A stretch of DNA of 64,000 nucleotides from Lingula anatina (Eukaryota; Animalia; Brachiopoda). This document shows, piece after piece, positions 7,080 through 58,240 of the stretch; position 1 is the stretch's first letter; the number at the start of each line of letters is the position of its first letter. Under the pieces are notes generated by a model. That model was not told the origin of the DNA, made no database searches, and worked only from the letters and a program-made list of their open reading frames with translations. The stretch covers positions 27,222,848 to 27,286,847 of the forward strand of contig CM120643.1 in NCBI GenBank assembly GCA_051362555.1. Reading direction: 5' to 3'. The translations under genes and the position numbers were made by a program.

Positions 7080-8033
7080 GTGACAGACAGTAACGCAAAA
7101 TTAGAACTGGCGAAACCGAAATCTCTTCTGCTTTAACTCCAGTTGCTCAATGTATTTATCAGCGTATTGCAGCCTATGTTTTTTCCTCTTTGAATAGGAT
7201 GCTATTGCCATTGTTTTAAATTATTGTTTATTTTACATTCGACCCGGAAACAGTCAGTTAACAAAGGGATTATATATAACCTATATGCCTTACTGCCGAC
7301 ATGACCTACTAAGCACTTAAAACCGGAGACTTGAAACGAATGATACAAAATGATGGCACAGGATGTGTAGTTACAGGAACGTGCGCCAGAGCACGAAAAT
7401 GTACATTGGCTGTTCTGTTGTATAGAGAAGAAAGGCAAAATATTCATTGTTGTATGTATACAGCTCAACTGTTTTATAATAAACGCAGAGAAAACGTAGT
7501 TACCACGTGGTCGACACGACCTCTAAACGCCCCGGTAAAGTTGCAGAAACGTGATAGTCACCTTCTCTTATAAACTTTCCGCATAAATGGTCGTCTTTCT
7601 GGACGTAGAGAAGCCACGGATATTGTGTTCTGACCATGCAGTAATGACGGTATATTATTGTGAAAACTAGATTCTTATACAAACTCTCTCAAACAGGTGA
7701 ATTTATAGATATTCCTGTATAATATTCATTTTTCCCGTGCAGTCACTCCAGTAACCACAAAACCGTTTACTGCCAGAGGGTTATTAACAGAAATGTTTAC
7801 ACTTGATACAAAGTCTCGCTAACAAATTATTATTATTATGCCAGTTACGGAGGATTAAGGAAACAAATCCGTCAAAAAATTAAAATCGTGACAATTGAAA
7901 GTCTTAGCTGTTTTTTTCATGTGCAACAAACGAGTGCAAAAAAAACAATCATGTTAACAATCTGTTTCAATGAAGGGATCAAATGCATTTTCGTTTAAAA
8001 AAAATGGCACAAAAGGAAGGCTTCAACTGATTT

Positions 8034-11539: not shown

Positions 11540-12732
11540 TCATCCAATCAGGTATCCGGAAAATGTAGACCAGGCATACCAGAGAGTCGGAGTTGGGCCT
11601 GTCACGTGAATCGCCTGGAGGTGGACAGTCTCCCCTTTCTCACACCTGGTGATTACCGAATTGGACCCAGTGTTATGATCATCGTGGCTCGCAGCAAGGA
11701 CATACATCAGAAAAGCATCGGGCTGTGTGCTTCTGCGCAGTTCGGCCGCAATTCGTTCCCCGGTTGTTGACGTTGAAATCGTTGCCGTAAAGAAGTAGCT
11801 GCCGGAAAACGGGCAAGTGAATCGTCCCGACATTGCGTTGTATGCATTACCAACGTTAGTGATAACCTTTTCAAAATTCAAGACATCGCTTGTTTTAACG
11901 ACCCTTGAATGTTCAAGTGCTGCCGAGAACGCAACACGTGGGGAATCTGAAATGTAAATAAAGATAAAAAAAATCAATTCATCCTGATGTATTTCACTAG
12001 AGTTTATAAGGTTTGCAACAAAAGGAAAGGATGTTTTAAGTTTATCTAATGTAATTATTCATTTCCCCATGCTTGTCTACATATTGAACATATAACTACA
12101 GATCTAAGAGTTGTGCGCTTTTTCTCAATGGTCACATGGCCCCAGGCATTTTAAACACTTATCTTTTGATAAGATGCATTATTTATATATTATATATGTT
12201 CACAATTTAAATGATAAGAAATTTCATAGATGTGGAACCGGTCCAATTGAAGTCTAGTCATAACCTTCAAACCTGTATGCTTAAAAGCTATTGTTGATAT
12301 ATATAGTTTCGTCTATTTCACAAATGTAATTCGTATGAGCTCTCTTTGTAGTGGCATGTTGTTTACATTCAAAGTACGGATCTTAATTTAATGAATATTG
12401 CATTATAAATGCTTACATTTTGTAATATGTTAACACCAAAATACAAGCTTTTTTTTTTATATTATTCGAACATATTAAAAGCGGATGTCAACATTTCACG
12501 GTTAAAGTCACAAACCTGGATTTCCTATAGCGGTGCTCAGTTGACGGACTTCCCTCTCTAACCGCTCCAACAACAAGGCCACGTTGGAATAAGAAGCTGC
12601 AAGGACATTCACACGCTGGTTGATATCGGCACTAGGTGGACAGCTGACCGGTGGGCAGTCCTGTCCAGTTGTTACAACCACAAGCCACGCCACAATACCC
12701 AGACCAAATGCTGAAGATCCCACTGAATACAT
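11540..12732 (-). CDS. Secreted globular C1q-domain protein C (intact; signal peptide + coiled coil + gC1q, no collagen)
   Basis: Exons 12732-12516 and 11946-11540, phase-1 GT-AG intron. Motifs VAFSA, FEKVITNVGNAYNAMSGRFTCPFSGSYFF and STFSGYLI. An alternative in-frame ATG lies at 12744. Confidence 0.92.
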
Positions 12733-27200: not shown

Positions 27201-29193
27201 GTTCCGTTTTGTGTGATATTGATCCATTCTTTCTAAAAAGCTTGGCGAAATTGGTCAAGATTATTTGGGGATTAGTACTCTCCTGCATTTAACACTCCAA
27301 TTCATGACACGGGTGCTCATTGGGGTTGATATTATGGCTCAAGGATGTTTGTCCAATCCTCAGAACATTCTGTCTCTGCAACAAATCACTCACCAGACGA
27401 AAGTTGTGAGCAAGTGCGTTGACACGATGAAGCCAGTACCATCCCTGAAGTCACCTCTTGCAAATGGAGTGAGATATCTGTTGAGAGCATTCTGTTCCAG
27501 AGGGAACAATGTACTGATGCTATGGGCTTGGAATGCTCTCCAAATGTGGACTGATCTGACACTCAGGCGATATGATCCTGCATCAACCCTTCCAAGAGGC
27601 ATTGTCTACGGTCTACGGACTTGCAACATGTCTACGGACCATCATTTTGCCATAGATAGGGTACAGGAAATACCTTAATTCTTCAACAAAACCAGTTTCC
27701 TTTTCAGTGATGGCTGACCAGGTTCCGGTACCTCTAGGGTAACTGAACGTAATTTTCTCAACTTATATCTCACTAATCTGCAAGAGCTACCCTGAGTGTC
27801 AGAGCAACGTAAAAGCTAACTAGCTTAAATATACCTTGTGATGGAGTCGCTTTTACTATAGCTCTGACGAACAGCGACAATCTGAGGGCGTTTTTCTTCA
27901 AAATTTTGCCTGGGGCACTTCCATATTTGGAAGTCACACGTCACAGCTGTGTCCGCCTGGATCCATATTTGGAAGTCATAAGTCTCGTGCGTCACAGGTT
28001 TGGCCGCCTGGAGCTGCCTTTCCCGCCTCGCGCTGAAGTTATCTCGTGCAGACGAGACAAGAAGAAAAGTGCCTGACGAAGTTTGAATTGAAAATATCTT
28101 GCAGTCGAAGGTCAGTGCCACAATAGAAGCAACATTCTGCTTTAACAACTGATTTTGGTGTAGCCATTGCGCAGCCCTTATAGTGGTATCGGGCATACAG
28201 TGTAGCTGTCAAATTTGACACACGGCAAGCACGTGTATTGCGCACGTGTACATCTCAGGACTAAATGTTCATTGATAAGCAAAAAATACAAGAACATTGG
28301 ATATATCTTTTCTGTTCAAAGAATATTATTTATTTTTTCACTTTACATCTTAAATACAGCAAACAAAATTAAATAAAGCAGAATTAAAATTGTTTTACGT
28401 TTCATTTTGGTCTGATGACATTCAACTGCAGATTCACTGCGAAGCAGTTCTATTTGATTGACGGAAGTGTAACATGCATATGGCTGCTGTTCACTAGAGC
28501 CGGTATTGTTGATATGGGTTATATATGAAATCAAGATCGAGCTGGCAATACCGGAATCTAGAACCTAGGGTAGCAAGAGCTGACTTCGAGGTTAAATCCA
28601 GGATTCATCATGACAACACACTTGCTCGCAGAGCTTATCGCGCCGCCTACAGGAGATTAGTGCAGTGCGCAGTAGACAAATACACTATTAGGCACGCGAC
28701 CTTTAACGAGCACATCCTAATGCTAATTGTATGTTAATTTGGTGACATTTGGTGCTGGCATTCCAATTTTATGGACATTTCTTTACCTCTGTGGAAGCCC
28801 CAGTGAAACACTGAATTTGAGGGGTAACATGTTTTAAATCTGAATAAATGGTATGGAATATTTTGTATATTCTTAACCATTAATCATGTCATATACGGCA
28901 TCTGAAATTAAAAAAAAAACACTGTTTATGACAATTTACACCTCATTTGTAAATAATTGGGAGTGGGACAACCTTTTTGGCCAATGCTGTATGACTGTTG
29001 TTGCGTTGTTTGGCTATTAGAGTAATGAGTACATGTAATACTTCTACTAAATGTTTATAGTTGTGTTGACAGGTAAAGACAAAGGACGGGACTTGGTGCC
29101 CCGTGTTGCCAGTGCCTGGAACCGTCGGAGTGTTTGTTGATCTGTTGTTACAAAGATGGACGGCTGACAAACTGAAAGCTACGGTAGGTACAG

Positions 29194-29239
<46 letters not shown>

Positions 29240-29959
29240 GTAGACCTGTCTCTATCAGGCACATAAATGCTGTACAAATACACACGCGCGCGCTCGCGCA
29301 CCATGTTCTCACTCTCCATGGAGAAAGTAGCCCATGTACGTGTAGATACGGCACATACACCTCATACAATGTCAGCAGCCTTTGTTTAGTATTACAGATA
29401 CAAAATGAAAGAATTTCGGACCAATATATGACCATGCTACCTTGATTCCATACAGTAGCCCGATGAGTGATATCATATTAGTGGACCTCTACAGTTCGAT
29501 TTTTCTCGAAATGGACCAATATTTGTTGGTAAAATTTGATACAAATTGTCGTTCCAAGCTCTGTTGTGAACCCAGTGTCGTGTGCAAAAGACTCTCCTGT
29601 AATACAGAGTCCACCTCCTGGTGATACATGTATGTACAGGTAAGCCCTTTCTTTGAGTCCAGCCCATTTATGTCAGACCAACCCTTACCTGTATAAACCT
29701 AATGGGGGACGGACTCTGTTCCACGGACCCCCAGTTTACTCACAGTGGACTCATCTGTCACCCTGACCATGTTTTATTTTTTTACTCGCAGGTGCACAGG
29801 GTGATTATGCCAGGGGGCAAGTGCCCAGCCCGCCAGTCCATTATCCAACTTATCGCTCCTGATGACGATGTGGAAGTGAAATGCGTGGACGGATCCGACA
29901 CGTACGAACCCGTCAACGCGAGATCTTTCGTTACTGGGATATTTGACAAGACATATTAA
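20693..29959 (+). CDS. 2-oxoglutarate/Fe(II) dioxygenase, IPNS-like (DIOX_N + 2OG-FeII_Oxy), paralogue A, 311 aa
   Basis: Exons 20693-20857, 21751-21878, 22249-22312, 22584-22694, 23429-23528, 23777-23865, 29073-29183 and 29792-29959 total 936 nt and are open. Motifs IPVIDF, FFELP, DLKESF, RCNYYP, HAD (HxD), VHRV, RQS (RxS). Confidence 0.92.
25047..25108. repeat. Perfect palindrome, 30-bp arms with 2-nt spacer
   Basis: AATTAGTAAGCTTGCCAACTGATGACAGTT-AA-AACTGTCATCAGTTGGCAAGCTTACTAATT. Confidence 0.95.
27788..28572. mobile_element. TACCCT...AGGGTA element copy 2 (inverted relative to copy 1), nested in the 4.7-kb element
   Basis: TSD GCAAGAGC at 27780-27787 and 28573-28580; high identity to 5704-6479. 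Confidence 0.9.
29194..29238. repeat. (CT)n microsatellite
   Basis: Read directly; intron 7 of dioxygenase A. Confidence 0.9.
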
Positions 29960-30929
29960 CATTACAAAGGACTGATCATCTGAAGCCTTATATATAGGTT
30001 TATATCTTTGGGCAGGTGTTGGTATTACGTAAGAACTTACGGCTACAGTAAATGCTTTAACTTCAACATCGAAAATATGGCTGAAGGCCGGACAAAACTT
30101 AAATTGCTTAACGATCAAAGGACCCTTATTTTGAGGACATTCAGATTTTTTGCACCTATGTTTTCTTTATTTTCAAATGGAAAATTTAAAATACATTGGT
30201 ATCGGTTTGTTTAGCGGAAAAAAATTAAAAGGTACCTTTAGATACCTTTAACCGATAACTCACCGGTTGTCGGCACCACGGAACCGTATTTCATAGAAAA
30301 TTAAAGAGTCAGAGTATGCATGATGGTGATGCCAAGAAAGTGCTGAATACATAGTGACCAGTGTGACAGAAACCCTGCCTTTGCAATGGATATAAAGATG
30401 CTTCTGCTAGAAATTTAACCAGGGAATGACCCAGCGCTAGTGGAGATGGGAATGGGCTATCTCCCACTTACTGTAATGTGCCATACATTTTGACTGCTGT
30501 TGAATTTGCTTAATTACTTCTCTCTGAGGAAACTCACATAAAAATTATTACCATGAGTATCTGTGTACACACCAAACACTCTTTTCGTAGTTTGTTTTAT
30601 ATGACTCTCAAATTCCTTGTGGATTCACTTTCCAATATTAAAATCTAGTAGAAAATAACAGTTGTTTATTACTTGTAATTTAGAGCATGCAATTATGTTT
30701 TTCAATGTATCTTTCAAGACTGATTAAATGTTTGAATAGTTGTGTTGTAACATGCGTTCCAATTGGGGTGCAATCATAAGTTTTCCATTCTTACTTCCAC
30801 AAAGCTTGAGGTCATAAGACCTGTTTTATGCAAGTCGTTGAGTAAAAGGATTCTTTTTATTCTACTGTAAGAACGAAAAAACAGCATGTGATGAGAGCCT
30901 AAATAAACTTTTGTACTGAATACCCCACC

Positions 30930-32102: not shown

Positions 32103-33167
32103 TTATGCACTGGCAAATGTCTCATTGATTTTCCTCATGTCAGACAACATCGTGCCCTGCCTTGTGTTGGGATCTGTGACAGTATGCTCACCCGCCTGTC
32201 TCTTCTTGATCTTAGAGACAAATTCTTCATATACCTCTCGATTACAAACCAAAGACCCAAGGACGAAGACACCGTCAAGAGTTGCCAGGACAATAAAGAC
32301 ATACCACAGGGCCTCTGTGTGGAAAAGGGGCGCCAAAAATCCGAACGTCCAGTTTGCACCCAGAACGACAAACAGTTTGACGTATATGCCAATCGGATGC
32401 TCTTGGCTTGTGTTTTTCAGCTTAGATGTCCTGGCAACCGCTTTACGCAACAGCCTCGCACAGTGGATGTAGAGACCAAGATTGGAGACGATGGCGACCC
32501 CGACAGGCGACACCAGGAAGATAATGAATGGGTATTTACGCGATATCCAACACAATCTTATCCCGTAGCCTGGCTGGAATGCTGGATCCATTTCAACATG
32601 GTTGATCACTATGGCGATGGTTACTATGGCTACGGGAACAAGAAAAGCATATGTACAATACAGGGTGAAGAGACGCCTCTTAGCACCGGCAGTGTCAAAC
32701 TTCATAGCGGCCGTGAAATTTAAGGCACGGCACATGTCGATGGCCAATATATTCATCCAGAAAAAGGATGGCCATAACTTTACAAACGCCTTCTGACATC
32801 ACAGCAAAGGGAGCAAGAAGTAAAATAAGTTTTGAAAATAATAACGTCAAACACAGACAAAGCTGTAAACGCGCTGGAAAAGTGGCGTACTTCTTGATAC
32901 AGGGCTGAATAATGATCCGTGTCGAAAGACAGATTATTGAAACACTCAAGCAGACGATAGTTACAAGCCCCATGGTGCCAGATGCATTCGGTATCATAGG
33001 TGGCAGAAATGTCTCCAAGACGCTCTCATTTTGCTGCTGACCATTGTGAGCGCCATCTGTTTCCTCCGAAATAGGGGGAAGACCATCGACAGTAGGTCCT
33101 ACCGGTACTTCTTCCTCGCCTTTCAAAGATGGGTCCTCGAGAGAGTAAACCTTATGAATGATCAAAG

Positions 33168-33206
<39 letters not shown>

Positions 33207-35685
33207 GTTGTTGTTGTTGTTGTTGACTGAGGCTGAGATCGGCTCTTAGCTAAGTATCAACCCGAAGCTGGGATACTTACCGCCGCCGAAAGCGAAGGTC
33301 AGTTAACCTAGCTGAGCGTTGATCCAGTAAAACGTGACCAAAGTACTAACATAATCTACCAGTAAACTACTTTTTTACATAATCACGAGTTTTTAAAATA
33401 TTTAAAAATAAGTCCGTAACTCACTGATGAGGGATCTGACTCATGCAGTTTACGTGTAGATTTAAGATGGTGTAATGCGTTGATTAGGAGGTAAAACACT
33501 ACATGTATAATAATTGACCGCTCGTGATTGCCTCTCAACCAATCGTCAAACATCAAAATACGTGGTCACGTAACAAAATGAAGTAATGAATACATAAGTA
33601 AGTAATTTATGAGTTTTTCAGGGTGCTTCGATAACAACAACGTCAAACCTTTGAAACACAAACTTACAGCCATAAACAGTATAATATAATAACGTTAATT
33701 TTGTCAGGGCAAGTAGGATTGAAAGCCTGTAAATTAAACTAATTTACCTTTTGTATGTTGGTGTTCACTCTCGCTAAAATAAAGGGAAAGAAGTCGTCGT
33801 CGTGCTCTAGGAGAGTACCTGACTGGATATCGTGGACCGCCGTCTTCACACTCTCGGTGATATTCGGTCGTTTTCGTCTTACACGAAGCTTGAAGCTCAG
33901 TGAGCAGTTGACGGTAGCCGCCAGAGGTTGGAAATGAATGTCGTTATGAACAGTGCTTAGATATAAGGTTGACAGATACGTATACCCTAGATTTGCTGCC
34001 CAGTACAAAAGTTCCTCTTCGGTGGTGTTCCAATCTACCTTAGCCCATTCTGATGTAATATTCCACGTAAGGTCGAAATCAACCAGATAGATGTCCCATT
34101 GATAACGACAAGCTCCATCTACCAGCTCGTAATCTGGCAGGCAAGAAATCGGCCGACAATCGCCGAAGCCAACAGCCCCCTCTTTGCACGATAGAGTTTC
34201 CACCTCGCTTTCTACGTCCCTCCGTAAGAGGCCAACGCTGAGCCCTGTAGAGAGATTAAAGCCCATGAGCACCGAGAATGAAAAACCACTCAGACGGGCT
34301 ACATCTTCTTTAACCTTTGAGATATCGAGATCAAGGCATCCTATCTCGATGACTGAGGCGTTGTCACATATGGCGCAGAACTGATTCTTGTACGTGGCGC
34401 CCAAAAAGCGGACAGGGTTGTTGAATTTCCTGCACATGTCCGCCATATGGGTGCTATTGCATGTTTCTGAGCATGTAGATATGTTTATTCCTGTGTCACA
34501 CTTGTGTACTGCTGTGTTTTTAGGCGGATTGACCGTCGGAAGGCAAGCGGAGAGCAAATCAAGATCTGACAAGTTTAGTGTCGTGACGGCATCTGTGCAA
34601 TCGTAGTCATGAGACCAAAAGGTGTAGTTCGTTATGTCATTGCAGATGGCACAGAACACGTTTTTGAAGTGTAGACGTGTGGACAGATCGGTGACGGGGG
34701 TGATGTAGGCTGCCTCTCTTCGCGCACTGAAACAGCCCTCCTCGTATTCACTTCCTGTCCATTTGTCGGCGCACTGCTCCCCTAAAACTCGAACGCCAAT
34801 ATCACTCTTGTCACTCCAGCAGATCGGTTTGCCTGGAACGTCGCCAACCTTTATCTGACTTCCCGATGGATCTTTTTTGCATTCGTAAGGAAAATCAAAA
34901 CAACAATCTCCATATATTTCACAAAAATCGTTGCAAGAGCAAGCCATTGTAACAATTTTGGCGTTGAAACTAGTGCTGTCAAATATGCTGTCATGGAAAG
35001 ACATTCCACAAGCACCGGAACAAGTGTACTTCCACGACGGAATTGCGTTTTCACAAGTCACAATTGCTGAGGTATGTTGCATGAACGTTTCGGTGTTGTT
35101 CGCGTTAGATGCACAAAAGTCTTGTATCTCTCCTTGTGGTACTAAAGTTGGATGTAATTCAGGTATAGCTGAGGGGTGTCCATATGACGACCAGAAGAGT
35201 TCACTGTCTCCTTTATTGAAGTAATACTGATATGAGCCCATATCCTCCAATGACTGGGTTGCAGTTTCGAAAGCATTTGTGGCATGGACATTTCCGTCAT
35301 GAACTTCCAACGCACCTGCAATAGATGCCTCACTTGTATCTGTTTTAGCAGCGTCGATATTACTGGATTTCGTGGAACCACCTCCGTGCCCGTTTGGCTG
35401 TGTCGAAGGGCTGGTTGTTAAGTTGTTAGGGTCTTCTATGGTATTGGCTGTTACGTTACTCTGTGTGTGCATGGACTCCTCCGTAATTTGGTATGGAGTG
35501 ACAGAAGTGAAGTCAACAGTACTAGTATTTTGAAAGGACGCGTTTCTTTCTTGTCTCTCCCTGTCTTCGGCGTGTTTGTTCCTTACGTTGCTAAGTTGTT
35601 TATGGCTTTCTATGGCACCAGTCACGGTAAAATTAATATCTGTCATGGTCATAATGAAAAACAACAAGTTCATCATCCACGCCAT
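32103..35685 (-). pseudogene. SMB-domain class B (adhesion/Methuselah-like) 7TM receptor with a frameshifting deletion in TM3
   Basis: Exon 35685-33748 encodes a signal peptide, S/T-rich stalk, SMB-like CSCNDFCEIYGDCCFDF and two (F/Y)KNxFCAIC repeats. Exon 33150-32103 encodes TM1-7 (WMNILAIDM, PGYGIRLCWIS, YVKLFVVLGANWTFGFL). The frame changes at ~32760-32770. Confidence 0.85.
33169..33225. repeat. (TTA)n(TTG)n compound microsatellite
   Basis: Read directly, in the GPCR intron; it creates the spurious poly-Leu ORF. Confidence 0.9.
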
Positions 35686-36785
35686 GTTGGCTTATAACTC
35701 ACTTGGGCAGCTTGTACTATGTATAAATATTCTTTTTGATGACCTTGATTTTCTTGTGGAACTTCACAAATTCCGAACTCTCCTTATTGTACCGTGTACA
35801 GGCATGAGATGGAATTAGAAAATGTTTTCAGTAATCTAAGGTTACCCCTTGAGGACTTCGATGCTCTTCATCCCCTAATACTGTGTCTGTGTGAATACTA
35901 CTAGTACAGTATTTTAAGTTGGTTTGAGTGTAACGAATTAGAACATACATATGAATATCCTGACTGACGACGTTGAGTTTTCTACGTTTGCACGTAAATG
36001 AATGCTTACTTGGACGAAAATTTAAGTTCGGATTCTTTGACGATCAGTGAACAAGTTGATATTCCTTTACAGGTACCGTGGCAAACGCGGTTAGCACTAA
36101 CAAAAGACAGTCATATTATTACCAGAGTATTCTCTTGCAGCTCCTATGGGACTCTTGGTATTAGTGGCGCATACATCAAGAATTCTCCACGCACAATTTA
36201 ACTAGGAGGTTACAACAGAGATTCTAGTCCATGCCGTAGATAACTGGCCCCTCCTTCTTTACAATGAAAAACAAATGTCTGATTAAACTATGCGTATGTT
36301 GGCGTATTAGACAAATACACTGATGTTATTTAACACTTTAGTAAAAGTTATAAATTCTTGGTTTTTATGGTGTCTTCTGAAATCTTACCAACATGTACAC
36401 TATGCCGTACAAACTGTATATACATATTCTGAGCAGTGTCCGCGTATGTCCTTTAGATTGATGGCAGACAAGTCAATCGCCGACTTGTCAACGTATAGGT
36501 ACGGTCGCATGTGCCCTTCCCTCAACAGCTACATGTAACAACTGACACGACCCTTTTTATAGCGCGCTGTTGCTGCGCTGTCTTTCCTTCGCTCTTTACA
36601 ATCAATTAGCAAATTGACGTTGAATCGTGACTGGTCTTAAGTGTGAAGCATGAATAAAACACTCTTAAAGACCCAACCATGTGTTATCTGAAGGATCGAG
36701 ATGCGTCTTATGATCAGAACCTGCTCCAGTGAACTTATTTCCAGCCGTGCGTGTCTTTTCTTCTTGAAATGGCGGTTGATGCATT

Positions 36786-45068: not shown

Positions 45069-47311
45069 TTCTTGTGCAAATACTCGCGCAATTTGAATTT
45101 GAAAAGACGTAACATCTGTCAATTTTCCCCTGACCCTCCAGCAGTGATGACCCAAATAATTTTGTTTTGCGTGCATTTATAAATGTAGTCGTACATGTGA
45201 GCGCTTTATTTGTATTGAGATGTCAATAGATAATGTGCAATATCCTTTTTTTTCTTAACAAAAAAGGATCGGCATTTCTTTGATGGACTACACAAAGGTG
45301 CAGGAACCCGGAAGTCACTGACGTCAACGCGGTGTAACTATTATCCGGAAGTTACAGATGAAACAGGTAAATAAGTTGGATAGCCTAATGGCGTTTCGTG
45401 GAGGGGCCCTTCCCCATTCCAGCTCACTTTGTCAGGATAAAAATGCAGATTCCGCCCCCCCCCCCCCCCTCACAGTTCCCCCCTCCCCTACTGTTCCAAG
45501 AGTAGGGAAAAAACATTCTGGAAAATAGGTAAATATTAATGTCATGATTGTATTTGAAAGACACGTTCGCTTTTTTAATCTGACATCTGTCGACACCGTT
45601 TTATGTGTGCGTGTGTATTTTTTCATTGTTGTCATGATATACTTTGTTCTTGCTTCTCTTAAAGAAAGTATAATTTCATTCCACAGTTACCTTCTTGTTT
45701 TTGTACAAATTCTTTTAATATGCTCTATGCTAAAATAAAGTATGATAAGTCATCGTTTGCCTGTGAAATCAGTTAAAATATCAAAAATTCGTGGTCGCTT
45801 GAGTCATTCTTCTCAGAAGAACTGGCTGTGTTATGCCAATAAACGGAGCCTTGATTTGCGTAAAAAGTAAATTTTATTTCTATTAAGCTATGTCGCTCTT
45901 TTGCAGTGATTGTGCCGAATCAGATTCGCATTGGAGAGCATGCTGACTATGTGACCTTGACCCTCTTGTTTCAAGATGACCAAGGCGGGCTGGAGGTCGG
46001 TGAGCTATCATCAGCCCATATAATCCTTGAAATTTTGTTCATCAGAAAGAAGAATATTTATCATGCACAAATCAAAGAAAAAGTTAAAATAAAGAAAAGA
46101 AGTCAATTTAAAATAAAGAAAATATTTCTATTCGCCAATAAGTACCATTAATAACAACATAAGTTGTGTCATCACTGGTTCTATAAAGTGTTTGTCGAAT
46201 ACTTCATGTAGATAGATGCCACATGTATGACACAGTGGTGGAAATGGTTTAGTTTCATTTTGCTTATTATACTTTTTTGAGAGGGAGAATGGGGATAACG
46301 AGACGGCAATACCTTTGATAAGTCCAGGGTATATACCGTGCATTGTATACATGTATATAGGCCGTACTTTAGTACTGCTAGTATACGTTTATAGTTGTTT
46401 TGACAGGTACAGAGAAAGGACGGGTCTTGGTGCCCCGTGTTGCCAGTGCCTGGAACCATCGGATTGTTTGTTGATCTGTTGTTACAAAGATGGACGGCTG
46501 ATAAACTGAAAGCTACAGTAGGCACAGTTCTCTTCTCTTCGCTCTTTCTCTCTCTCTCTCCAGTAGACTTATCTCTCACAGATACACACATACGCACGCA
46601 CTCACGCACACATATACACGCAAACACAATGTATGCATGATAGTAGCCCATAAACAATGCCAGCAAACATGTGCGGTAACCTTGAATTCATACTGAAGTC
46701 CCAATTTTCATATCGGTGGACTCCTGCTGGTTTTTTTTTTTTTTTTTTTTTTTTTAATGAAATGGACCAATTACTTGTAGAATTTGATACAAAATAAACT
46801 CCTGTGTGAACCCACTGTCACGTATGAGAGGGACCCCTGTAATACAGAGTCCAGTGACCCTTGATTCGTATGCTTTTTGGCCATAGGGTGCGCTAGTAGT
46901 CCGTTACAAAAGAGTTGAAAGCCCAATGTGCGATTTTGTACAATACTATACTGGGCCCCTGATATCAGAAGATAGATTTGTACAGGTGAGATCCTCCCAT
47001 GATTTTTGCCTCACTAACGTCAAGCTCCTTCTAACCTGTATGAATCAAATGGAAGGCTGACTGTCTGTTACACGGACCCTCTGCTCCTAACCACCAGACT
47101 CTGCTCCTACACTGGCCATGTTTTTCTTTCTTTTCTCTGTCAGGTGCACAGGGTGATTGTACCAGAAGGCAAGTGTCCAGCCCGCCAGTCCATTGCCCAC
47201 TTCATCGTCCCTGATGACGATGTGGAAGTGAAATGCTTGGACGGATCCGACACGTACGAACCCGTCAACACGAGATCTTTCGTTACTGGGATATTTGACA
47301 AGACATATTAA
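42713..47311 (+). CDS. 2-oxoglutarate/Fe(II) dioxygenase, IPNS-like, paralogue B, 311 aa
   Basis: Exons 42713-42877, 43341-43468, 43783-43846, 44161-44271, 45267-45366, 45907-45995, 46407-46517 and 47144-47311 have the same sizes as in paralogue A. HAD, VHRV and RQS are intact. Confidence 0.92.
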
Positions 47312-48882
47312 CTTTACAGAGGACTGATCATCTGAAGCCTTATATAGGTTTATATATTTGGGCAGGTGTTGGTACTACTTACGCAAGAACATCCGGCTAC
47401 AGTATATGCTTTAACTTCAACATCGAAAATATGGCTTAAGGACGGACAAAACTTAAGTTGGTTAACGATCGAGGTGGCCCTTATTTTGAGGTCATTCAGA
47501 TTTTTTGGTACCTATATTTTCAAATATTTTCAAATGGAAATACATTGGCATTGGATTGTTAAACTGAAGATTTTTTAAAAAGGTAAAATATAATAATTAT
47601 ACTTATTTAGATACCTTTAACCCATAACTCGTTACTTTTTTTTTAGTAACGCGCAAAACGCGTTGTGTAAGTATTGGTGATTTCTATTCAACAGAGCTTT
47701 ACAGAAAACGGCCAGAAATATATTCATAGATTAATTTTGTCAGCGTATATTCGTTGTCACACATCCTTCGCTTGTGTGTCGTTATTTCTGATCCCCTTAC
47801 TCCACGATATCTCGTTTAAATTTAAAGCTACTCACCGGGCTATCCCAGAAGATTCGCTTACGTACATAAACATCCTACATGCATGTCATTCATAGGCAGT
47901 AACAGACACGTCCTTTACATATACGTGATGAACTGTTTCACGCGATATAAATATTGAGACTAATTAACTCGAAATAGAATTCCATTCGTTCTAGCAGAGC
48001 AAGTGTTAAAATGGAAGCACAGATTTTTTTTCTGCTGGAGAGGGACACGGTATATTGCATCGGTTGTGCTTTTTGTAAGGATTGCGAATAATGGTACGAT
48101 AGAAGGCCATCTGACCAGTTGCGGTAAAACGAAAGGCCGCTACACTACGTTTGTATCTCCCATAGTCCGTTTACCAGGCTTAGTTCGATCCCCTGATATC
48201 ACCATCAAAAAACATGATCACACTTTACAATTTATGCGTTAGGGCGGTTGCACAACAGAGCTTTACCCCGAAAAATGATGGAAACTTTTTTGACTATTTT
48301 GTAGCCTTTTGAGTGTTCTTTTCTTTTAATGTTAACATTATACTATGCCCCTGTTGGTGTTGAGACACCATTCCTGGCAGACACACACATGTTTTCACGG
48401 CTTCCACGCTTTGGATTAAAAAAAATACAAACGAAGTTTCTTTCAAAAATCCAATAACCTTTTAAACTGTTGTGTAGTTCTTATATATTAATAAAAATGA
48501 TAATTCAATATCCTTGGCGGAGGCCCGCCCTTCCTGAGTGCTTTTTCCAGTTAACAGTATGACATACTGATGATATAGTTATGCGAAACATCAGGTCTTA
48601 TGTAACAAAACATTAAACTTCCATTAAAATAAAATTTATTTTCAAAATATTCTGTAAAAAGTTTCGTAATTTATAATACTACAGTTTGAGTAGAACGTGT
48701 TTGTTTAAATGTATAACTAATTTTATAAAATAAGTGATCAATAAAATGTACATTGCTAGAATATTTTATTCTTGACGTATCGCGTACGGTTTTGTGTTAG
48801 GTAAAGTGAGCCACTCAAGAGCAGCTCACTGAAACCTGAAGGGAAGCTGCTGAAGAAAAGAGTCTGCGCTCATTGTCTGCCT

Positions 48883-51800
48883 TTAATCAAGCGATAGATA
48901 TACGCTAGCTTCCTGAGTATTTTGTCCCTTCCATTTTAATGAAGGATTTTCTTGAGCAGCGTCGACCAGTTGCTCATCATTTAGTTTATAGACAAACTTC
49001 TGTCTTTCTCTCTGAAAAGCGGCGGAATTGAAACACTGCTCCATTGCGTGCAACTCGCGCTGACGATGCAGGGACAGGCGATCAAACCAGTCTGAGTTCC
49101 GCGTTTTGAACTTCTCTTGTACGGTCTTATTCCAGCTGGTGGCACTGGCTAAATTCTCCACAAAGCCTGGGAGCATTTCTTGGAACTCGTGTTTGTTCCT
49201 GTGAACGAAAATATATAAGAATCCGAATTGTAAGTAAGCATGAAACTGTCGTAGTAGAAGAAAGTTCACGGTATCTTATAAGACGAATTATATACATATA
49301 TAACACCAAGTTAGATTTCGTTACTTATACAGTATATATATATATATATTTCTTGACCTGCCTTATCGCTAACAGTCATTTCATAGCAAGCTGACGCGAG
49401 ACCACCACACCCGCAGATTTATACAATGTCATATCGCCATCAATATCATTATTATCATTATCACTTTTATTATCACTGAATATACCTCTGATGAGTGGCT
49501 ATCGACAACTACCACGCTACAGATCATTTTATGTAACTTGCCATATTGAACGCACTTTAAACACCATAATAAAATACTTAAAGTAGGGTATATCTCATTC
49601 TGAAAAATTCACTAAACAATCATGCTTATAACAGACTTAGTATTCTAATACTAAAAAACCAATATACGAACACGATCAGCCTCCTTACCTGCCAAGAACG
49701 TGATCTACCAGGCCGAGAGATCTTGCCTCCTCCGCGAGGAGAGGGTCTGGCCGGGCATACATCAGCTCGTACGCCGTGTCCCTGCCGACTCTTCTCGGTA
49801 GAAAGTGAGTCCAGTATTCCGAGCCACACAACCCCATGGAGCGATAAGCAGGAGAAAGTAAAACTCCCTAAAATTTGAAATAAACCACAAATTTGTCATT
49901 TGCATACAGATGCGTCATGATATTTCACAAAGAATTATTCTAGTTTCCAACAGCCCTCTACCCCACCCACCCCATTTCCCTTCTCCTCCCCCACCCCATC
50001 GCCATGCCCTTGAAAAGTTATATGGATGATTTTGTTTTTGAGTTATTTTGTGAAACTGGTATGACAGGAATGGTTATCCGCTTGGCACCATCGTTCGTTT
50101 CCCTTTGCGTTGTAAAGTGACATTCTTCACTTCTGTTGACCGCGTTACTTCCCGCTACCACTCTCTTGCACCAATCAAATGGGACCCAAACTTCCATTCC
50201 TAAGACTACCATTCCTGCCACGCCGGTGTAACAAAACAGAAAGTCCGCCCTCCATTTTGTTATAATGGTTAGGGTTAGCCTGACCTAAGTGGGTCAAAAT
50301 CTAGGGCGAGGCTTAACTGTACAAATAAATGGAAAGTGGATTCTTTATCATGGGGGACTCTCTGTCACCGGCCTCGGTTAAGTCACTTCAGTTTTCTCCC
50401 GGACATAATCGCTTACCTGAGCTGACACCACCACGTCAGCTGCTGCGGCCATCATGGCGCCCCCAGCTCCGGCATTTCCTTCTAGCGCTGCCACCACCAA
50501 CTTGTCTCTCATCTGGCTCATGGCCAATATGACGTCATTTATCTTATTTATGTTGTTGTTTGCTTCTTTGGCTGGATCGCCACTGGCCTCGATCTGACAC
50601 AGGTGGATACCTGGTGAGATAGAATGTTAGTGAGAAAATCTTTCTGTGGGCTATTGATAGTTATTTTCCCATTTCTTTTATTTCAATTTCATTTTATTAT
50701 TTTTTATTATTTTCTGTTTGATTTTCTTATTCATTAAATCATTCGTTAATTCACTTTGATTAATGTACCGTTTTTTTATAATTATTATGTATTGTTCATG
50801 TATTTATAAACTAATTGTAATCTTTTTTTAATTGTCTGCCTTTGGATGGCTATACTGTGATCTTTGTCTATATCTGTGACTTAACTCTCGGATTACATTG
50901 GATATCACGATAAAAGGTATTCAAATCACGAAAGTCATCACAGCCAGTTAAATCTCCCTCCTTCCGGACCCAGTCCAAAATGACATGTGGGGTCGTTGGT
51001 CTTATTTAATATAACGTAGCATCACACCGTACACCTTGGCACGGTACACCTTGGGACTGTACACCTTGGGACCGTACACCTTGGCACGGTACACCTTGGG
51101 ACCGTTCAAAATGACCTACGTCGACGTAGTTAATGCGCACTCCACGGGAACTTTCTCTTAATGCTATCGGATTCATAGACTTACACGTCCTGGGCCCCGT
51201 AACTCGAAAGCATCGCGCATTGCGACCGATCGCAAGCGTCTCGATTCCATGACTCTCCCATACTCGCTCCATATAATACATTGTAGCCTCTATGTAATAT
51301 CGCTATTTGCAACAGGCGATGCTTTCGAGTTACGGGGCCCTGGTGTAATCACCGCGCAGCTTCTCCGTACATATACTCTCCCCAACGGCAGGAAAAGGCG
51401 TGTTAGTCTGTTAATCTGATTGCATTCAGCGAGAGTCCTCCTGTAGTTACTGCGCATTAGGTAGGTTGACAATTCACTCTCAAAAGTTCCCTTTGATTTG
51501 CGGGAAAACAACAACTTACCGGTTGAAAAGAATCGCGAGCCGCCCATGAGGACTACAACCTTGACGTGGCTCATCTTGGCAACTTGCTTCAAGACCATTG
51601 CCAGCTCTGCCCCCTGGCGACTGTCCATGGCACCGTTGTAGAAATCAAAGTGGACATAGCACACTGGACCCTGTTGTTTTAACCAAATCTCGCTGTGGCT
51701 GGAGACATTGGTCAAATCTGGTAAACTGGCCACAGTACTGGCAGGCAAAACTGAGGTAGCAGGTAACTTGATGGACAACCGCTTGTTCCTCTAATAAAGA

Positions 51801-54582
51801 AAAGAAACTTTATGCAGGTCACATCAAGAAGGTCGAACTACTTGGTCACATGTTTTGTAACATCTAATTGACGAAATGAGAGGTCCGTGTATTATGTTTG
51901 CTTGGTTCGACTTCCATGTCTGACATTTTATCTGGAACACTTCTTATTTATTTTGGACGAGAAAAGGCAACTCACTCAACAAACAAATCAAACAACATTT
52001 TTTTTTTTTTTTTTTTGGAAAACAGCGCGTCACTGCGCCTAGAAGTAGTTTGAAAATACAGATTGCTTCTTCATAAGACGGAAAATTGATTACCAATTAC
52101 TGATTAGAAATTGTTGATAAATAATAATTTTAACAATTCATACAGATTTATTCTGAACCCAAGTATCAAATGAGTTGCCAAAAATAGATAAAAAATAATC
52201 AATTATTATTGAAATAATATTAATGCTGTATAAATATTTCACTATGAGAGAAATTTTTTATCGTTCTATGGGTTATTCCAAGTAATCTCCACACGCACTT
52301 CTGGGGAACTATGGTTTTATTTCAAGGTGTTCATACTAACAAGCAATATTGTAGGCCTATACGCACCAACTTAAATTTTGTAATATCTGGATTAAAGTTT
52401 TAAAAGCACGATCTGCCTCGAGAGTGTGCACGTAGGTATCGTATTGTACATAAAGCAGGTGAATGTGAACTTTTTATCACTGCTTCAGTAATAAATATAT
52501 CTACAATTAAGTATTTTTCCCTGATTATAGCCCCTCTTACCTTCATGCAGGTTATCCAGACCCCCTGGCGGTCACCGGTTGAAACTAGCACAGCACCCTG
52601 TTTTTTACCGACCACACTTCCTGGCGTCCCAGCACCCAACACATCCTGGACATCTTTGTGGAGGCCGCTTTCTTGGAATGCACCAAACACCCTGTAGGTC
52701 TCGGCGCGCCTGGTACCGTCCTCAGAAAACGTGAGTGAGGCAATTGCGCCTGGTTGAGTATCAGAACATCGTATTATTCGGCATATTTCTTCGGCGGACA
52801 TGTCCCAATTTATTTTCCTGTCCGAAGATTTCATGGACGGTAATAAGCAGCCCTTTACGTCAGGGTCGGTGTAATCCAGAGGAGTCGGCGGGATCCCAAG
52901 CCGAAATTTCATCAGTCCGTCCACAATGGCATCGGCAGCCACGTCGCTAATCTCGCCACAATACACGCCGGTCTTCGTAGCGTCTGCCTTAAGCGGGAAA
53001 TTAGCAGTACTCCAAATATCCCCGCCGTCCATCACCTCGCTAGCCTGGAGCAGCGTTCCTCCCCACGACTCCGCCTGCTGTCGTATAGCCCAATCGATGG
53101 AACTTGGTCCGCGGTCACCGACAATGCCCGGATGAAAAACCAAACATGGCCGCTCTTCCGATCGCCATATTGTTTCCGGTATATATTTGGTTAGAAACGG
53201 GCAGACGATCACGTCGGGTTGAGAATGCTTTACTGCATTTTCCATTGCACTGCCATTGCCACAGGCTGTCACTGTTGTCCCTACCTGGAAAATAAAACCG
53301 CTACAGTTGAAGCCACTCTCTCTGTTGCAGAGATGTCAATCTCTGAAATCTCAATTCTGGAGATTCTAAAATTTTGCTCATTTCGGGGGGGGAGGGGGAG
53401 TGGTCGCTGCCGTTGTGCTCAGTGGCGGGAGAGAGAAAATTATTACGTTTTCATAACATCATCCAAATATTCTGAAAACAAATTGACTTTTAATAGTTTT
53501 GCGTGTCATACTTATAAAATATCAATACAAAAACGTAGTTAAAAGATTGCTCTTAAACATGCCTCAAAACGCGAGGTGACTTTAAAAAACCGAAATTGTT
53601 TGGATTTGGGTATTTTAGACAGGACGTTAGCTGACATTGGGGCAAATGTTCAAAATCGCTTTTTTTTCGGGAGATTGGGTTACCCGTACTGGAGACCGGG
53701 AGATTCGTTCTGTATTCGGGAGACTTCCGGATTATCCGGGAGAGTTGACATGTATGCTCTTCCCTTCAGTTAAGTTTTAAATGAAAGACACTGATGGATC
53801 AAGAATCGGTCTATTCCAGAAGAGAGAGAAGGGACAAGTATAACCAAAATAAAACAGAGGAAGACGATAAAGCTACTAGTAAATGTGTGGCTCAGAAATA
53901 AGAAAAAAAACGTTTCTTTTTTATTTATTTGCCTCGTCATCATTTTTTTTTGGGGGGGGTGTTCATTAAAGGGGACAGCGTTGCATGACCCTTCTGTTAC
54001 ATCTTACTGTTACATTTGTGCTTTCGGCTATTACGTTAAGTTACGACTACATATGTAGTTCTTTGAACATTGATGAGACACACGTTGTTTCTTTGTCAGC
54101 AAAGTCACGTGAAATAAAGATGAGTTTAATGTATCAAGATGTACTTGTCGGCAGGTAACACGCGACGGGGCAATAACTTGTGTAATGTAAATTAATGAGT
54201 TAAGACACTAGTTGTAGGCATTATACTGTACTATAGGGGATACATACGGGGAGATAAATAGGATATACGCTGAGAGCCATCAATAGAAGGACATGCAGTT
54301 ATCGAGTTTGGAAGTTTGAAAGTAACTACAGAAATAAAACATGGAGCAAATCTTTCCAAGTACATTCAGGCTACCTGTCACAGTTGTTTTGGTGGAATTC
54401 AGCAAAAAAAAAAGGATTACGGCGGGCAGTTCGGATTTGCGACACCAATGTGCCCGGAGTCGTAATCCTGCAAAAACGGAAAACGGTAGTTCGTTCTCTA
54501 TTTTCGTGCACTTGCTATGTACAAGTGCAGAGGTGACATAGTGTGAGACCATAATAACATTTTATTCGTCGTAAGTTTTTTG

Positions 54583-54637
<55 letters not shown>

Positions 54638-55563
54638 GATTTTTTTAGATATAATATTAAAATATACATCCGGTCTAGATCCCAACAATTCAGGTAGCAC
54701 GCCTTGAATGTCATGTAAATGGTTAAAAATTTGAACTTTTCTCTGTAAAAAATGCAAAGATAGAATTTTAAAAAAGGCAATATAAAATAAAGACATACAC
54801 GTTAACTTATTCCATCGCGTTTCTTTTCCCTAATTAGCATACACTGAAAATCACATGGCATCAATTTTAAAACAGTTGCGCTTTTATGCAACCCAAAATT
54901 ATTGCATAACTGTGCTTATGTAAGCTGAAATTGAGCGGCGGCCATTTTGACTTATGTAAAGTGCAATTTTGGAGGCCCAAAATTCTGGCATGCCATTGGT
55001 GATACGTAGAGCCGTCTTCTCACATTTACTCTTTCACCCCACCCCCACCCTCACCCCCACCCCACCCCCACCCTCACCCCCACCCTCTCCCCGGTCTCCA
55101 AATTTAAAACTGATAAACGCACGCGGATATGTCCCACTACTGGTACATGTGTTTGTGTTAGCGCGAGCAATAAACAGGCTATGCATGCCAAACACTGAGC
55201 AACCCGACCCCCCTCACCAAGAACCCTCCCCCCCCCCCCTTCTCCCGGTTTAACGTTTTGAAGAAAATCACAGTACCTATACAGGTAAGTGCCTTCAGCA
55301 TTCACTTTTAACTAGTCCTATTTTCATTGAAAAACCTGTTTAAGAGAATGTGATGAAGCGCCTGCAAAAAACGAAAGCTGAATTCTTTAAGAGCAGATAA
55401 CATATTTAAACGAATGCATTCTACGTACCTTTAACTGTTTTAGCGTCAGGTTGATTCTTTTGGTCAAGTTGTTGATGGCGTCAGAGATAATCAATACCTT
55501 CAGACCCTCCAAAATAGCGGGACTCTGTACTAGCTGGCGCGGCTTCGGTAATATCGCAGACAT
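48883..55563 (-). CDS. hypX: HypX/HoxX-like protein (N10-formyl-THF formyltransferase + enoyl-CoA hydratase/crotonase fusion), 612 aa
   Basis: Exons 55563-55429, 53284-52541, 51790-51520, 50610-50417, 49867-49689 and 49198-48883 total 1839 nt, open, all GT-AG. Motifs PDVIVCPFL, HPGIVGDRGPSSIDWAI, MDGGDIW, SDTQPGA, KLPAT, HFDFYNGAM, FFSTGIHL, GNAGAGG, YRSMGLCGSEYWTHFLPRRVG, R..FVYK. Confidence 0.93.
51028..51102. repeat. 15-bp minisatellite x5 (NGTACACCTTGG(C/G)AC)
   Basis: Read directly; intron 3 of the hypX-like gene. Confidence 0.92.
51193..51339. mobile_element. 147-bp Harbinger-type MITE with CTG TSD
   Basis: Perfect 24-bp TIR GGCCCCGTAACTCGAAAGCATCGC; CTG at 51190-51192 and 51340-51342. 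Confidence 0.88.
53328..53756. mobile_element. Possible hAT-like non-autonomous element in hypX intron 1
   Basis: Ends CAGAGATGTCAA / TTGACATGTATG; subterminal CGGGAGA repeats; TSD only partly matching (CTCT). Confidence 0.4.
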
Positions 55564-55756
55564 GCTTCTGTAGAACTTCACACACTAGCTGTTGAAAGTG
55601 CTACAACTGTATATAACAGCTATACCCATACGTGTAGAAAATGCTTCGTATTAAACGTCTATGGCTTGGCCAAAGTCACGTATTAATGCAAGTTCCGTCC
55701 TGTCATTCCCAATGGACAACACCGCTGTGCAGAGCTACTGGTACATTGTAAATTTT

Positions 55757-55974
55757 CCTCTTTATATACATATACCTGTTTCATAAGAGACAACCAGGAA
55801 ATGACTAGCGACACCTGTGGTCGGCTGAGATTACATACAGTGTACGGTGCCCATCACGTGTTAAAGCACGCCACTTTCTCTCTTTGCAATGTTAATGATC
55901 CTCCTTGTCCTCCTTATATACATATACCTGTTTCGTAAGAGACAACCAGGAAATGACTAGCGACCCCTGTGGTC
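55757..55974. promoter_or_regulatory. Duplicated 66-bp block upstream of the hypX-like gene
   Basis: 55757-55822 is nearly identical to 55909-55974; contains CAGGAAAT, TGACTA and TGTGGTC. The duplication is certain; a regulatory role is inferred. Confidence 0.45.
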
Positions 55975-57133
55975 AGGTAAGAGTTCTTACAATGTGCAGT
56001 CTGTTTTGGACGCTCGTCGAAGCTTAATTATGGACGCAACCGCATTATCTCTTTTATTGTTTAGTAGTAAGAACTATGCCTGGGGTAACGTGTCCCACGG
56101 CTACAATAACAACAAGCGAGATCCAACACTTGGGACTTAAAAAACGCAAGAATATTTTGGTTAACTTGTATCTGTTAGTTTTTTACTTTTATATTACTTT
56201 TTAGTTTATCTATGTAGTATTAGTTTTTATATTCATTTGAACACGCTGAGACGCATGTGAAGTGCTAATTTAAGAAATACATTATTAGTACTGTTATTAA
56301 TATTAATAAGTTCCCAACGGAGCCGTTAGAATGAAAAATATAAGTAGACAACATCGGTAGAGCCGAAAGTTAAGCAGGTTTGGGCTAAGAACAGGACACC
56401 TCGTTTTCGCCCATTTCTAAGGTGGAAAGAAATCCTATAATATTACAAGACCAACATTATTTCAATGAAAACCAGAAAATGTTATTTAACCAGAGTGACT
56501 TTGGAAAGACAACGGTTGCACATCAGTGAAAATGAAATGTCTAAAAATGCAAAAAGAGACGCCGTATAGGTCACAATGGCCATTCCTACTGTACGCCGCA
56601 TTCAGACTATATAACGAAAGGCTTAAGTCTGTGAAAAAAATGGGATTATTTATGAAATGTAGGACAGTTCACAAAGAATTCAAAACGAAATTTCAGAGAA
56701 ATTAAAGAATGTAAAGTAATATCGGGCCAATTTGCAACAGGTAAAAAAGAATGCAGGGGGAAAAGATATGCGGAAAGAACATTATAAAGATCAGAAGAAA
56801 GAGGTTGAAAAAGATAAAAAGAAAACACTATTATCAAGAAGTTATGGAAAAAGAAACCAAAATCTATAAAGCTTTACACAGTTTTTGCTACTTACAAAGA
56901 TTTTAATGAAGAACTTTCATGACTTCTTGTATTCAGGTACTAGTATTTGTACTTTTGGGATTCAAATCACCAAGACAGCGACACACGAAGAGGAAAATAC
57001 ACCCGGCTCAGAATTCATGATCAACGTTTTATCGGTTAAATAAAAAATATAATTTATATCTGAACTAAAAGGCAAGTGAACTGGACACGATATGGGTCAT
57101 TTGGTGTTATCTAGTTAATACACAAAAACCTTA

Positions 57134-57348
57134 GGCTGTATTCCCAGAGCTTTTAGATCGATCTATCCCCGCGGGGAGTCTCACTAGATTACTGTCAGAT
57201 GATCCGGCTTAAATGTCCGTCCCGCCTACTACAAGCTGTAAGGGGGTAATTAGCTTTCGTGTCCGCCCGGCTGACAGCTATTTAGCGTGAACCCCCAGGG
57301 AGTTAGGTCGATCTAAAGTAGATCGATCTAATCTCTGGAAATGGGGTC
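57134..57348. mobile_element. PIF/Harbinger MITE copy 2
   Basis: TTA flanks at 57131-57133 and 57349-57351; same family as 38154-38368. Confidence 0.8.
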
Positions 57349-58240
57349 TTATTGTCTGATTAAGGGGACAATGTACCCAAATATGGCTAAAAATCGTCAT
57401 TTTGGGTTTATTATGTCTAATTATTGATTAAATGTGTATCTAACATTTAACAGAATAAGATTTTTACATTCTGAACAAGAAATATGTTTTTTCTGAGGAT
57501 TTTGAAGCTGCACACATCGGCACCGGTGGCCTGGTCTGTGCCCCGCCTTCGTTATCAAGGGCAGTTGGTATGGGAAAACTCGGTGGGCGGACCTTAGCAG
57601 CATCAGCACGACTAGAGAAACAATAGAACAGGGATGCGCCATACCCCCTTTGTCATAAACAGCGATCGGCAAAGCATTGCCGATTGTTGCGCTTAAGCTG
57701 TTTTGATAGTCGGTCTTGATTGTGATCAGCGCTAAGGAGAATCTTTTCCGACACATTGGATTTGCTTGAAATACGCGTTCTCCCTTGAACTACTTGTTGT
57801 TACACGCGCTCTGTCGATTTACGCAAAAAAAAAACATTTCGTTGCTTGCTACCTGTGACAGCAACCGTCATACTATCGATCCATCTTCGACAACAGCACT
57901 ATGCAGCGGCAGATTTTATAAATCTATTGCAACTTGGGCAATTTGGCCTGGCATCGAGGCGCATGTTAAAATAATTTAAACATGACAACTAGTAATTACT
58001 AGCCTCTAGCCCTCTCTTAATTATTCCTGCTTACCAATGATCATTGGAAAATTTTTACAATGATAATATCTAACCTTTCCAACTGAAACGCAGTTAACGC
58101 AAGTGTCAAGATGACATCAAGCTCTAGTCTTGCTAGCATACCATACTAATTTCGGCTTATCTGCAATTATCAGGTAAGGCATCATTAAAAGTTAACGATC
58201 TGATAATATCTCCCAGTTCCATCTCACGTCCAGTCCACTC

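Follow-up and report, generated by a model that had tools for sequence, protein, structure and literature searches.

A spliced and transcribed HypX/HoxX family gene of the brachiopod Lingula anatina encodes a candidate heme-independent carbon monoxide synthase

The HypX/HoxX proteins of Aquifex aeolicus (PDB 6J0P and 6J1E-6J1J) and Cupriavidus necator are 10-formyl-tetrahydrofolate (10-formyl-THF) decarbonylases, which supply the carbon monoxide (CO) ligand of [NiFe]-hydrogenase. A 64,000-nucleotide stretch of the genome of the brachiopod Lingula anatina (assembly GCA_051362555.1, contig CM120643.1, positions 27,222,848 to 27,286,847 of the forward strand; hereafter the window) contains a member of this family on its minus strand, from 55563 to 48883, raising the question of what such an enzyme might do in an animal. 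The gene is real and expressed, and its sequence marks it as encoding a full-length HypX/HoxX family protein. This protein is probably no hydrogenase maturation factor of the usual kind, and we consider it moderately likely that it is a stand-alone formyl-THF decarbonylase, which would release CO without heme and with no hydrogenase as recipient.

The first-pass annotation, made from the letters of the window alone, had claimed an open six-exon frame of 612 amino acids and had named a transcript as one check upon it; both were found. The exons sum to 1839 nucleotides (612 codons and a stop, with no internal stops), and introns 1-5, of 2144, 750, 909, 549 and 490 nucleotides, are all five bounded by GT..AG. 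The start ATG lies at 55563, with an in-frame stop closely upstream (the stop-to-stop frame runs from 55584). The RNA evidence consists of raw reads of runs from the studies P1 (X1, X2 and X3), P2 (X4 and X5) and P3 (X7 and X8), which are tied to the window by species label; of each P1 run about 6/100 was read. The transcript is laid out as follows:

55564..56200, minus strand: probable 5' untranslated region (UTR), contiguous with exon 1 and uncertain at its far end; same-strand read depth 1-7 in X1 and X3, with no joint listed
55429..55563, minus strand: exon 1, coding part; amino acids 1-45, with a 20-residue N-terminal extension and the start of the formyltransferase domain
52541..53284, minus strand: exon 2; amino acids 46-293, formyltransferase domain with His96, Asp102, Asp131 and Thr221/Gln222
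51520..51790, minus strand: exon 3; amino acids 294-383, linker and start of the crotonase domain, with Asn345
50417..50610, minus strand: exon 4; amino acids 384-448, the GIHL and GNAGAGG loops, with Ala432
49689..49867, minus strand: exon 5; amino acids 449-508, with Tyr456 and Glu465, the proposed decarbonylase bases
48883..49198, minus strand: exon 6, coding part; amino acids 508-612 and the stop, with the last helices followed by a 33-residue tail that does not resemble the bacterial one; RNA depth 54-74
48640..48882, minus strand: 3' UTR, with AATAAA signals near 48770 and 48640; read depth declines across this range

Raw RNA reads skip all five intron lengths exactly. The joint across intron 1 (exons 1-2) is carried by 9 reads in X1 and 2 in X3, that across intron 2 by 46 in X1 and 75 in X2, that across intron 3 by 65 in X1, 77 in X2 and 2 in X7, and those across introns 4 and 5 by 76 and 92 and by 69 and 49 reads, respectively. 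A first mate on the plus strand denotes minus-strand RNA in most stranded libraries, and the first mate of almost all exon reads lies on the plus strand, implying that the transcript is derived from the strand of the gene. Exon depth is 25-130 across most of the gene in all three P1 runs (25-129 for exon 2 in X1-X3), with lower values in exon 1, as against zero coverage in both P2 runs and a trace in both P3 runs; transcription thus looks tissue-, stage- or condition-specific, the runs being matched by species label only. The listed differences between reads and window include four in coding sequence, all of them third-position and synonymous.

Some minor features of the locus were also observed. 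Two X1 reads carry an exon 1-2 joint with 32 other letters (window 53289-55429), and the interior of intron 1 (53903-54570) is faintly covered on the strand of the gene, each of which might point to a minor splice form. Short interspersed repeats at 50190-50340, 51190-51450 and 57130-57350, two of them intronic in this gene, draw many partly matching reads in all runs, and a tandem repeat of 11 bp occupies roughly 51030-51105.

Profile searches with exon 2 recovered Formyl_trans_N (PF00551) and Formyl_trans_C (PF02911) of Pfam, both above cut-off, and exons 3-5 recovered pieces of ECH_1 below cut-off, as expected for fragments. Exon 2 matches Aquifex HypX with an E-value of 9e-31. The closest named protein is the Lingula anatina orthologue XP_013397625.1 (63% identity over 584 residues, gap-free), residues 21-577 of which align with Aquifex HypX (E 2.5e-99). 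The fold comparison used the predicted structure of this orthologue in place of one for the joined window protein; that model (predicted local distance difference test score 93.4) matches 6J0P with template modelling scores of 0.84/0.90 and E 1e-54, the next-best fold being at 4e-16. The protein accordingly displays, at full length, the domain order of the Aquifex and Cupriavidus enzymes, i.e. an N-terminal formyltransferase with N and C subdomains fused to a C-terminal crotonase, and its orthologue is predicted to adopt the HypX fold. No HypX model fired in an NCBIfam scan. Other assignments were rejected: exon 2 scores 40 against the NCBIfam fmt cut-off of 201.5 for methionyl-tRNA formyltransferase, and the Lingula protein scores at most 62 against the cut-offs of 215-400 for the NCBIfam enoyl-CoA hydratase equivalogs.

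The spliced protein contains all the motifs quoted in the first-pass annotation, namely HPGIVGD at 96, MDGGDIW at 130, GIHL at 384, GNAGAGG at 428 and PAYRSMGLCGSEYW at 454. The catalytic residues of Aquifex HypX are His74, Asp80, Asp109, Tyr416 and Glu426 (PMC6802093). Mapping through alignments of the Lingula orthologue places His96, Asp102 and Asp131 at the three positions of the formyl-transfer triad and Tyr456 and Glu465 at the two decarbonylase positions, so that the alignment to Aquifex HypX proposed in the earlier annotation has all five catalytic residues in register. All 42 named animal sequences, and all 14 from other eukaryotes, retain these five residues, which belong to just 46 of 560 columns that are invariant in animals. 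The contacts of the coenzyme A (CoA) 3'-phosphate, Ser194/Gln195/Asn306 in Aquifex, are represented by Thr221/Gln222/Asn345; these contacts matter for CoA binding (PMC6802093). The neck residue Ala392 of Aquifex corresponds to Ala432, and is kept in all 42 animal sequences. Hence, the earlier identification of a HypX homologue with its catalytic residues stands on sequence, the fold of the Lingula orthologue and residue conservation alike.

In a reaction resembling that proposed for the formyltransferase half of this protein, ALDH1L1/2 transfer the formyl unit of 10-formyl-THF onto a phosphopantetheine thiol by means of a His/Asp triad (PMC6802093), and a weak sequence match (E 3e-10) is detectable between the two. 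However, the carrier and aldehyde dehydrogenase domains that follow the hydrolase domain in 10-formyl-THF dehydrogenase (ALDH1L) are absent from the protein, whose second domain is a crotonase, and this identity was likewise rejected.

In vitro CO release has been shown for bacterial HypX (review PMC12134894), and we regard CO synthesis by the animal protein as rather likely. In the proposed mechanism, the N-terminal domain with His96/Asp102/Asp131 would transfer the formyl group from 10-formyl-THF to bound CoA, the arm of which would then swing into the crotonase domain, where Tyr456/Glu465 would decarbonylate formyl-CoA to CO with regeneration of CoA and THF. Without a HypCD scaffold the CO would diffuse away, and would most likely act as a local gas signal or as a respiratory brake on heme or copper proteins in the expressing tissues or stages. 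This reading is drawn from the retention of the five catalytic residues, backed by the FolD fusions and the bacterial MHYT neighborhoods described below. CO is the most likely product on this analysis, and it might serve as a signal or, as the first-pass annotation had also suggested, as an antimicrobial, or might stem from the disposal of one-carbon units. The enzyme would share this product with heme oxygenase, but the two proteins are unrelated and the substrate of heme oxygenase is heme.

FolD makes 10-formyl-THF, and CO is present in the floats of kelp such as the bull kelp. Of the 37 long relatives scanned, 12 are fusions of HypX with FolD, which is N-terminal in two and C-terminal in ten. 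FolD-HypX fusions were also noted in P0462 (from Ascophyllum, a bladder-bearing brown alga), P0450, P0466, P0381 (bdelloid rotifers), P0008 and P0188, with protists and Chloroflexi included. No mention of a FolD-HypX fusion was found, for the terms tried, in the available text of a paper on the mTHF family.

Further contextual evidence is furnished by bacterial loci, of which the best 80 of at least 601 were considered. In 47 of these, hypA-F-like genes occur in the fetched flank, and in 33 none was seen, although short contigs may hide some. HypD was not seen in 12 of the 33 genomes without flanking hyp genes, several of the bacterial genomes being incomplete bins in which a missing HypD is not proof of absence; a [NiFe] large subunit was found in none of these 12, and all 12 of their HypX proteins retain the five catalytic residues. 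A gene for an MHYT domain lies within two open reading frames (ORFs) of hypX in six of the 33 loci without hyp genes, as against none of the 47 loci with them (Fisher p 0.004), where about 0.03 would be expected by chance. These were first found by Pfam on 103 of the 124 nearest neighbor ORFs, and an MHYT profile run over all 1284 ORFs recovered the same six loci, and none in the 47 hyp loci. The MHYT proteins (L002:11736-14156, L005:8749-9513, L015:9091-9867, L034:7908-8672, L035:12687-14621 and L040:8032-9975) include stand-alone, GGDEF-EAL and histidine kinase forms, and in five of the six genomes the copy adjoining hypX is the only MHYT gene seen. The MHYT domain of CoxC senses CO through copper (PMC11347149), and HypX is not mentioned in the available text of that paper. 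The proximity of hypX and MHYT thus fits a CO maker adjoining a CO sensor in bacteria.

Several other associations were observed among the bacterial members of the family. L034 additionally has an SCO1/SenC copper chaperone near hypX and the MHYT gene. HypX bears a C-terminal hemerythrin domain in three methanotrophs (L024:11696-12160, L030:11756-12220 and L079:10841-11311), and a DJ-1/AraC regulator lies upstream of hypX in five Methylococcales loci, which together with the hemerythrin fusions might possibly indicate O2-gated CO synthesis. One further relative, P0290, carries an N-terminal response-regulator receiver domain.

Ligand supply is the only proven role of HypX (review PMC12134894; PMC6802093), and the CO could conceivably serve in eukaryotes as the ligand of a hitherto unknown metal-carbonyl cofactor, or of symbiont hydrogenases, instead of being set free as gas. 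Queries for HypA-F, HycI and hydrogenase subunits drawn from the bacterial loci gave no match at E<0.01 in the 64-kb window, in agreement with the statement of the first-pass annotation that it holds no other hyp gene. Moreover, the family extends to fungi, mosses, algae and many animals, in which we know of no carbonyl cofactor, and we accordingly regard a ligand role as very improbable.

That FolD, an enzyme at the core of folate metabolism, has been joined to HypX repeatedly might alternatively be taken to mean that HypX is a one-carbon overflow valve, which would free THF from 10-formyl-THF without NADP+ and waste the carbon as CO, or as formate from hydrolyzed formyl-CoA. Serine-derived formyl-THF accumulates in mitochondria, and the N-termini of the animal proteins would be compatible with such a role. 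Extensions of at least 40 residues are present in 22 of the 42 named animal sequences, and by residue counts, on which these presequence calls rest, 21 of the 22 are basic and nearly acid-free over their first 25 residues, as fits mitochondrial import. These longer presequences therefore look mitochondrial. The HoxX-like animal models that are orthologues of the window copy belong to the same clade, and many of them possess such presequences, unlike the window copy itself. The latter is probably cytosolic, given its extension of only 20 residues, the in-frame stop closely upstream and the lack of an upstream joint in thin coverage. A waste of formate would, however, need no crotonase domain, as PurU alone hydrolyzes its substrate to formate, yet Tyr456/Glu465 are invariant in animals; the MHYT linkage also points to a gas that is sensed. 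A valve that wastes CO would in turn have the same chemistry as the decarbonylase that we favor, with the purpose alone being different. On balance, we consider an overflow function unlikely.

The relatives recovered in searches include bivalves, a nemertean, an annelid, amphioxus, Trichoplax, Nematostella, a tardigrade, rotifers, corals, Hydra and a fungus gnat among animals, and a moss, a liverwort, Chara, a brown alga, Plasmodiophora, fungi, Chlamydomonas and a protist transcriptome outside them. The earlier annotation had surmised that HoxX-like names might already exist for other invertebrates. This proved to be so: NCBI models from Mercenaria, Mya, Dreissena, Tubulanus, Branchiostoma, Trichoplax, Nematostella, corals and Hydra are automatically named 'hydrogenase maturation factor HoxX-like', and the family is wide in eukaryotes and not a one-off in Lingula, the orthologue of which, XP_013397625.1, has no HoxX-like name in NCBI. 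The spliced protein is 38-63% identical to the orthologues among the best matches listed, and no vertebrate HypX is among the matches listed (the best 120-150 of each search).

An unrooted FastTree phylogeny, built on the 269 rows that were left of 422 full-length ones after removal of near-duplicates at 62% identity, has a branch of support 99 that separates all named eukaryotes from all 80 bacterial loci. In a quick, likewise unrooted IQ-TREE analysis of 80 rows (LG+G4), the window protein groups with Lingula at 100, the spiralians receive 99 (99-100 over the two trees), and a core animal clade of cnidarians, placozoan, amphioxus and spiralians has a support of 99 in the Shimodaira-Hasegawa-like approximate likelihood ratio test; the bacteria with three unnamed rows receive 94. 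A single clade of all animal sequences is rejected (approximately unbiased test p 0.0012), with the tardigrade, gnat and rotifer copies lying outside, a group that was named after the trees were seen and in the presence of long branches. These outlying copies indicate that transfers do occur in the HypX family, and expression is absent or at trace level in four of the seven runs, both of which might be held to favor bacterial contamination, recent transfer or a decaying copy. The spliced reads and the phylogeny refute this explanation, to which we accord a negligible probability: the gene has five spliced introns and animal neighbors (ligand-gated channels, C1q and a 7TM receptor), all four listed coding variants are synonymous, and the position of the protein inside an old animal clade excludes contamination. 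By its phylogenetic distribution, HypX has been inherited within animals since cnidarians, placozoans and bilaterians last shared an ancestor, or for longer.

Several observations weigh against the proposed CO synthesis. With regard to the animal protein itself, (1) Tyr456 and Glu465 are nine residues apart, as against ten in Aquifex and Cupriavidus; a spacing of nine is found in 40 of 42 animals (two were not parsed) and likewise in 12 of the 47 hyp-linked bacteria. (2) His415, which adjoins the catalytic Tyr, is replaced by Ala, Ser or Thr in spiralians, in which the Asn413 position is also substituted. (3) The CoA diphosphate contacts Arg9/Gln15/Arg131/Arg542 correspond to Ala29/Lys35/Cys154/Lys579, i.e. 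the first three of the four are replaced, and the pairing of Lys579 with Arg542 was read by extension beyond the aligned end; in an Aquifex mutant these contacts were dispensable for binding (PMC6802093). (4) A C-terminal tail motif seen in 35 of the 47 hyp-linked bacterial enzymes, and in 13 of 21 and 3 of 12 in other bacterial loci, is missing from the core animal clade, most members of which end directly after the last helix, with an unrelated 33-residue tail in the window protein. The bacterial tail is placed next to the route by which CO is proposed to leave and to the swing of CoA (PMC6802093), so that with its loss the chemistry or the product release may differ; gas might escape more easily without it, or the product might be another one. 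With regard to the context, (5) O2 is a further ligand of the MHYT domain, which has a link to NO as well (nitric oxide; PMC11347149). (6) The six MHYT cases represent about four lineages and not six, and among the 12 genomes in which HypD was not seen the MHYT gene lies next to hypX in four, elsewhere in five, and was not seen in three, to which the incompleteness of the bacterial bins has to be added. (7) No MHYT match was found within the 64-kb window, and the absence of hydrogenase genes from the animal as a whole is presumed, none being known in animals.

The substitutions at the Asn413 and His415 positions in spiralians, the shorter Tyr-Glu loop and the lost tail would also be compatible with a role in biosynthetic formylation, in which formyl-CoA would be the product or the crotonase domain would bind another acceptor to receive the formyl group, and the tandem HypX paralogues observed in bivalves and amphioxus would fit such a diversifying metabolic enzyme. 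However, none of the 42 animal sequences has lost either of the two proposed bases or the neck residue Ala392, and no acceptor-type domain was found in fusions among the 37 long relatives, making this alternative improbable. Loss of the tail could also open the cavity to water, which would speak for an overflow valve. A role of the tail merely as a dock for HypCD was considered and dropped, since a similar motif is kept in two fungal members.

A separate variation was observed in ten hyp-linked HypX proteins of Bacteroidota (L013, L017, L033, L041, L043, L046, L047, L049, L063 and L077), which have Thr in place of the catalytic Tyr416 and a different tail. The Tyr is therefore not universal even beside hydrogenase genes.

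In comparison with the studied bacterial enzymes, the gene considered here is thus a spliced animal gene whose activity is predicted, and its neighbors in the window are animal genes. Among 20 scanned of the 73 ORFs listed, the neighbors are a ligand-gated channel, C1q, 7TM and 2-oxoglutarate (2OG)-Fe(II) oxygenase pieces. Two ligand-gated ion channel genes on opposite strands (663-3732 and 13574-15549) flank tandem C1q-domain genes (6455-12058), and similar spliced 2OG-Fe(II) oxygenase-like genes at 23635-30166 and 45864-47374 flank a somatomedin-B and secretin-family 7TM receptor gene at 32103-35691. The segments 6016-6411 and 27825-28208 are near-identical and on opposite strands. No second HypX copy is present within the 64-kb window.

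Heme oxygenase is regarded as the enzymatic source of CO in animals, and the carbon source of the CO in floats is carbon 3 of serine. In Physalia the CO of the float and gas gland derives from L-serine, and heme oxygenase has been credited with its formation on expression grounds (PMC13579702); the terms HypX, HoxX and formyl do not occur in the available main text of that report. The presence of CO in gas glands is confirmed in the available text of 10.1101/645465, PMC6820529 and PMC3916360, and a 1962 paper on folate derivatives in Physalia gas glands is listed by title. HoxX, HypX and monoxide gave no match, for the terms tried, in the available portions of 10.64898/2026.08.01.742136, 10.1101/2021.07.30.454354 and PMC8844502. 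No siphonophore HypX was identified among the matches listed, the nearest named hydrozoan being Hydra. No functional study of an animal HypX was found among the top listings of the literature searched; the primary HypX papers (Bürstel 2016; Schulz 2020) may mention eukaryotic homologues, and hoxX appears in the available text of a Magnaporthe paper merely as a cited reference. Thus, the automatic HoxX-like names were already known, and what is new is the RNA proof for an animal gene and the test case presented by siphonophore floats.

As a tentative generalization, which we hold to be possible but less than probable, many invertebrates, fungi, algae and early land plants might possess a second, heme-independent CO synthase that is fed by serine via the folate pool and is analogous to nitric oxide synthase, with bacteria pairing HypX with copper MHYT sensors of CO, and a cnidarian orthologue, not heme oxygenase, filling siphonophore floats with serine-derived CO. 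The float CO, derived from serine, offers a test case, given that hydrozoans such as Hydra carry HypX. If true, cnidarians, placozoans, amphioxus and spiralians would possess, in a conserved and expressed folate-to-CO enzyme, a second source of CO, one that is tied to serine metabolism.

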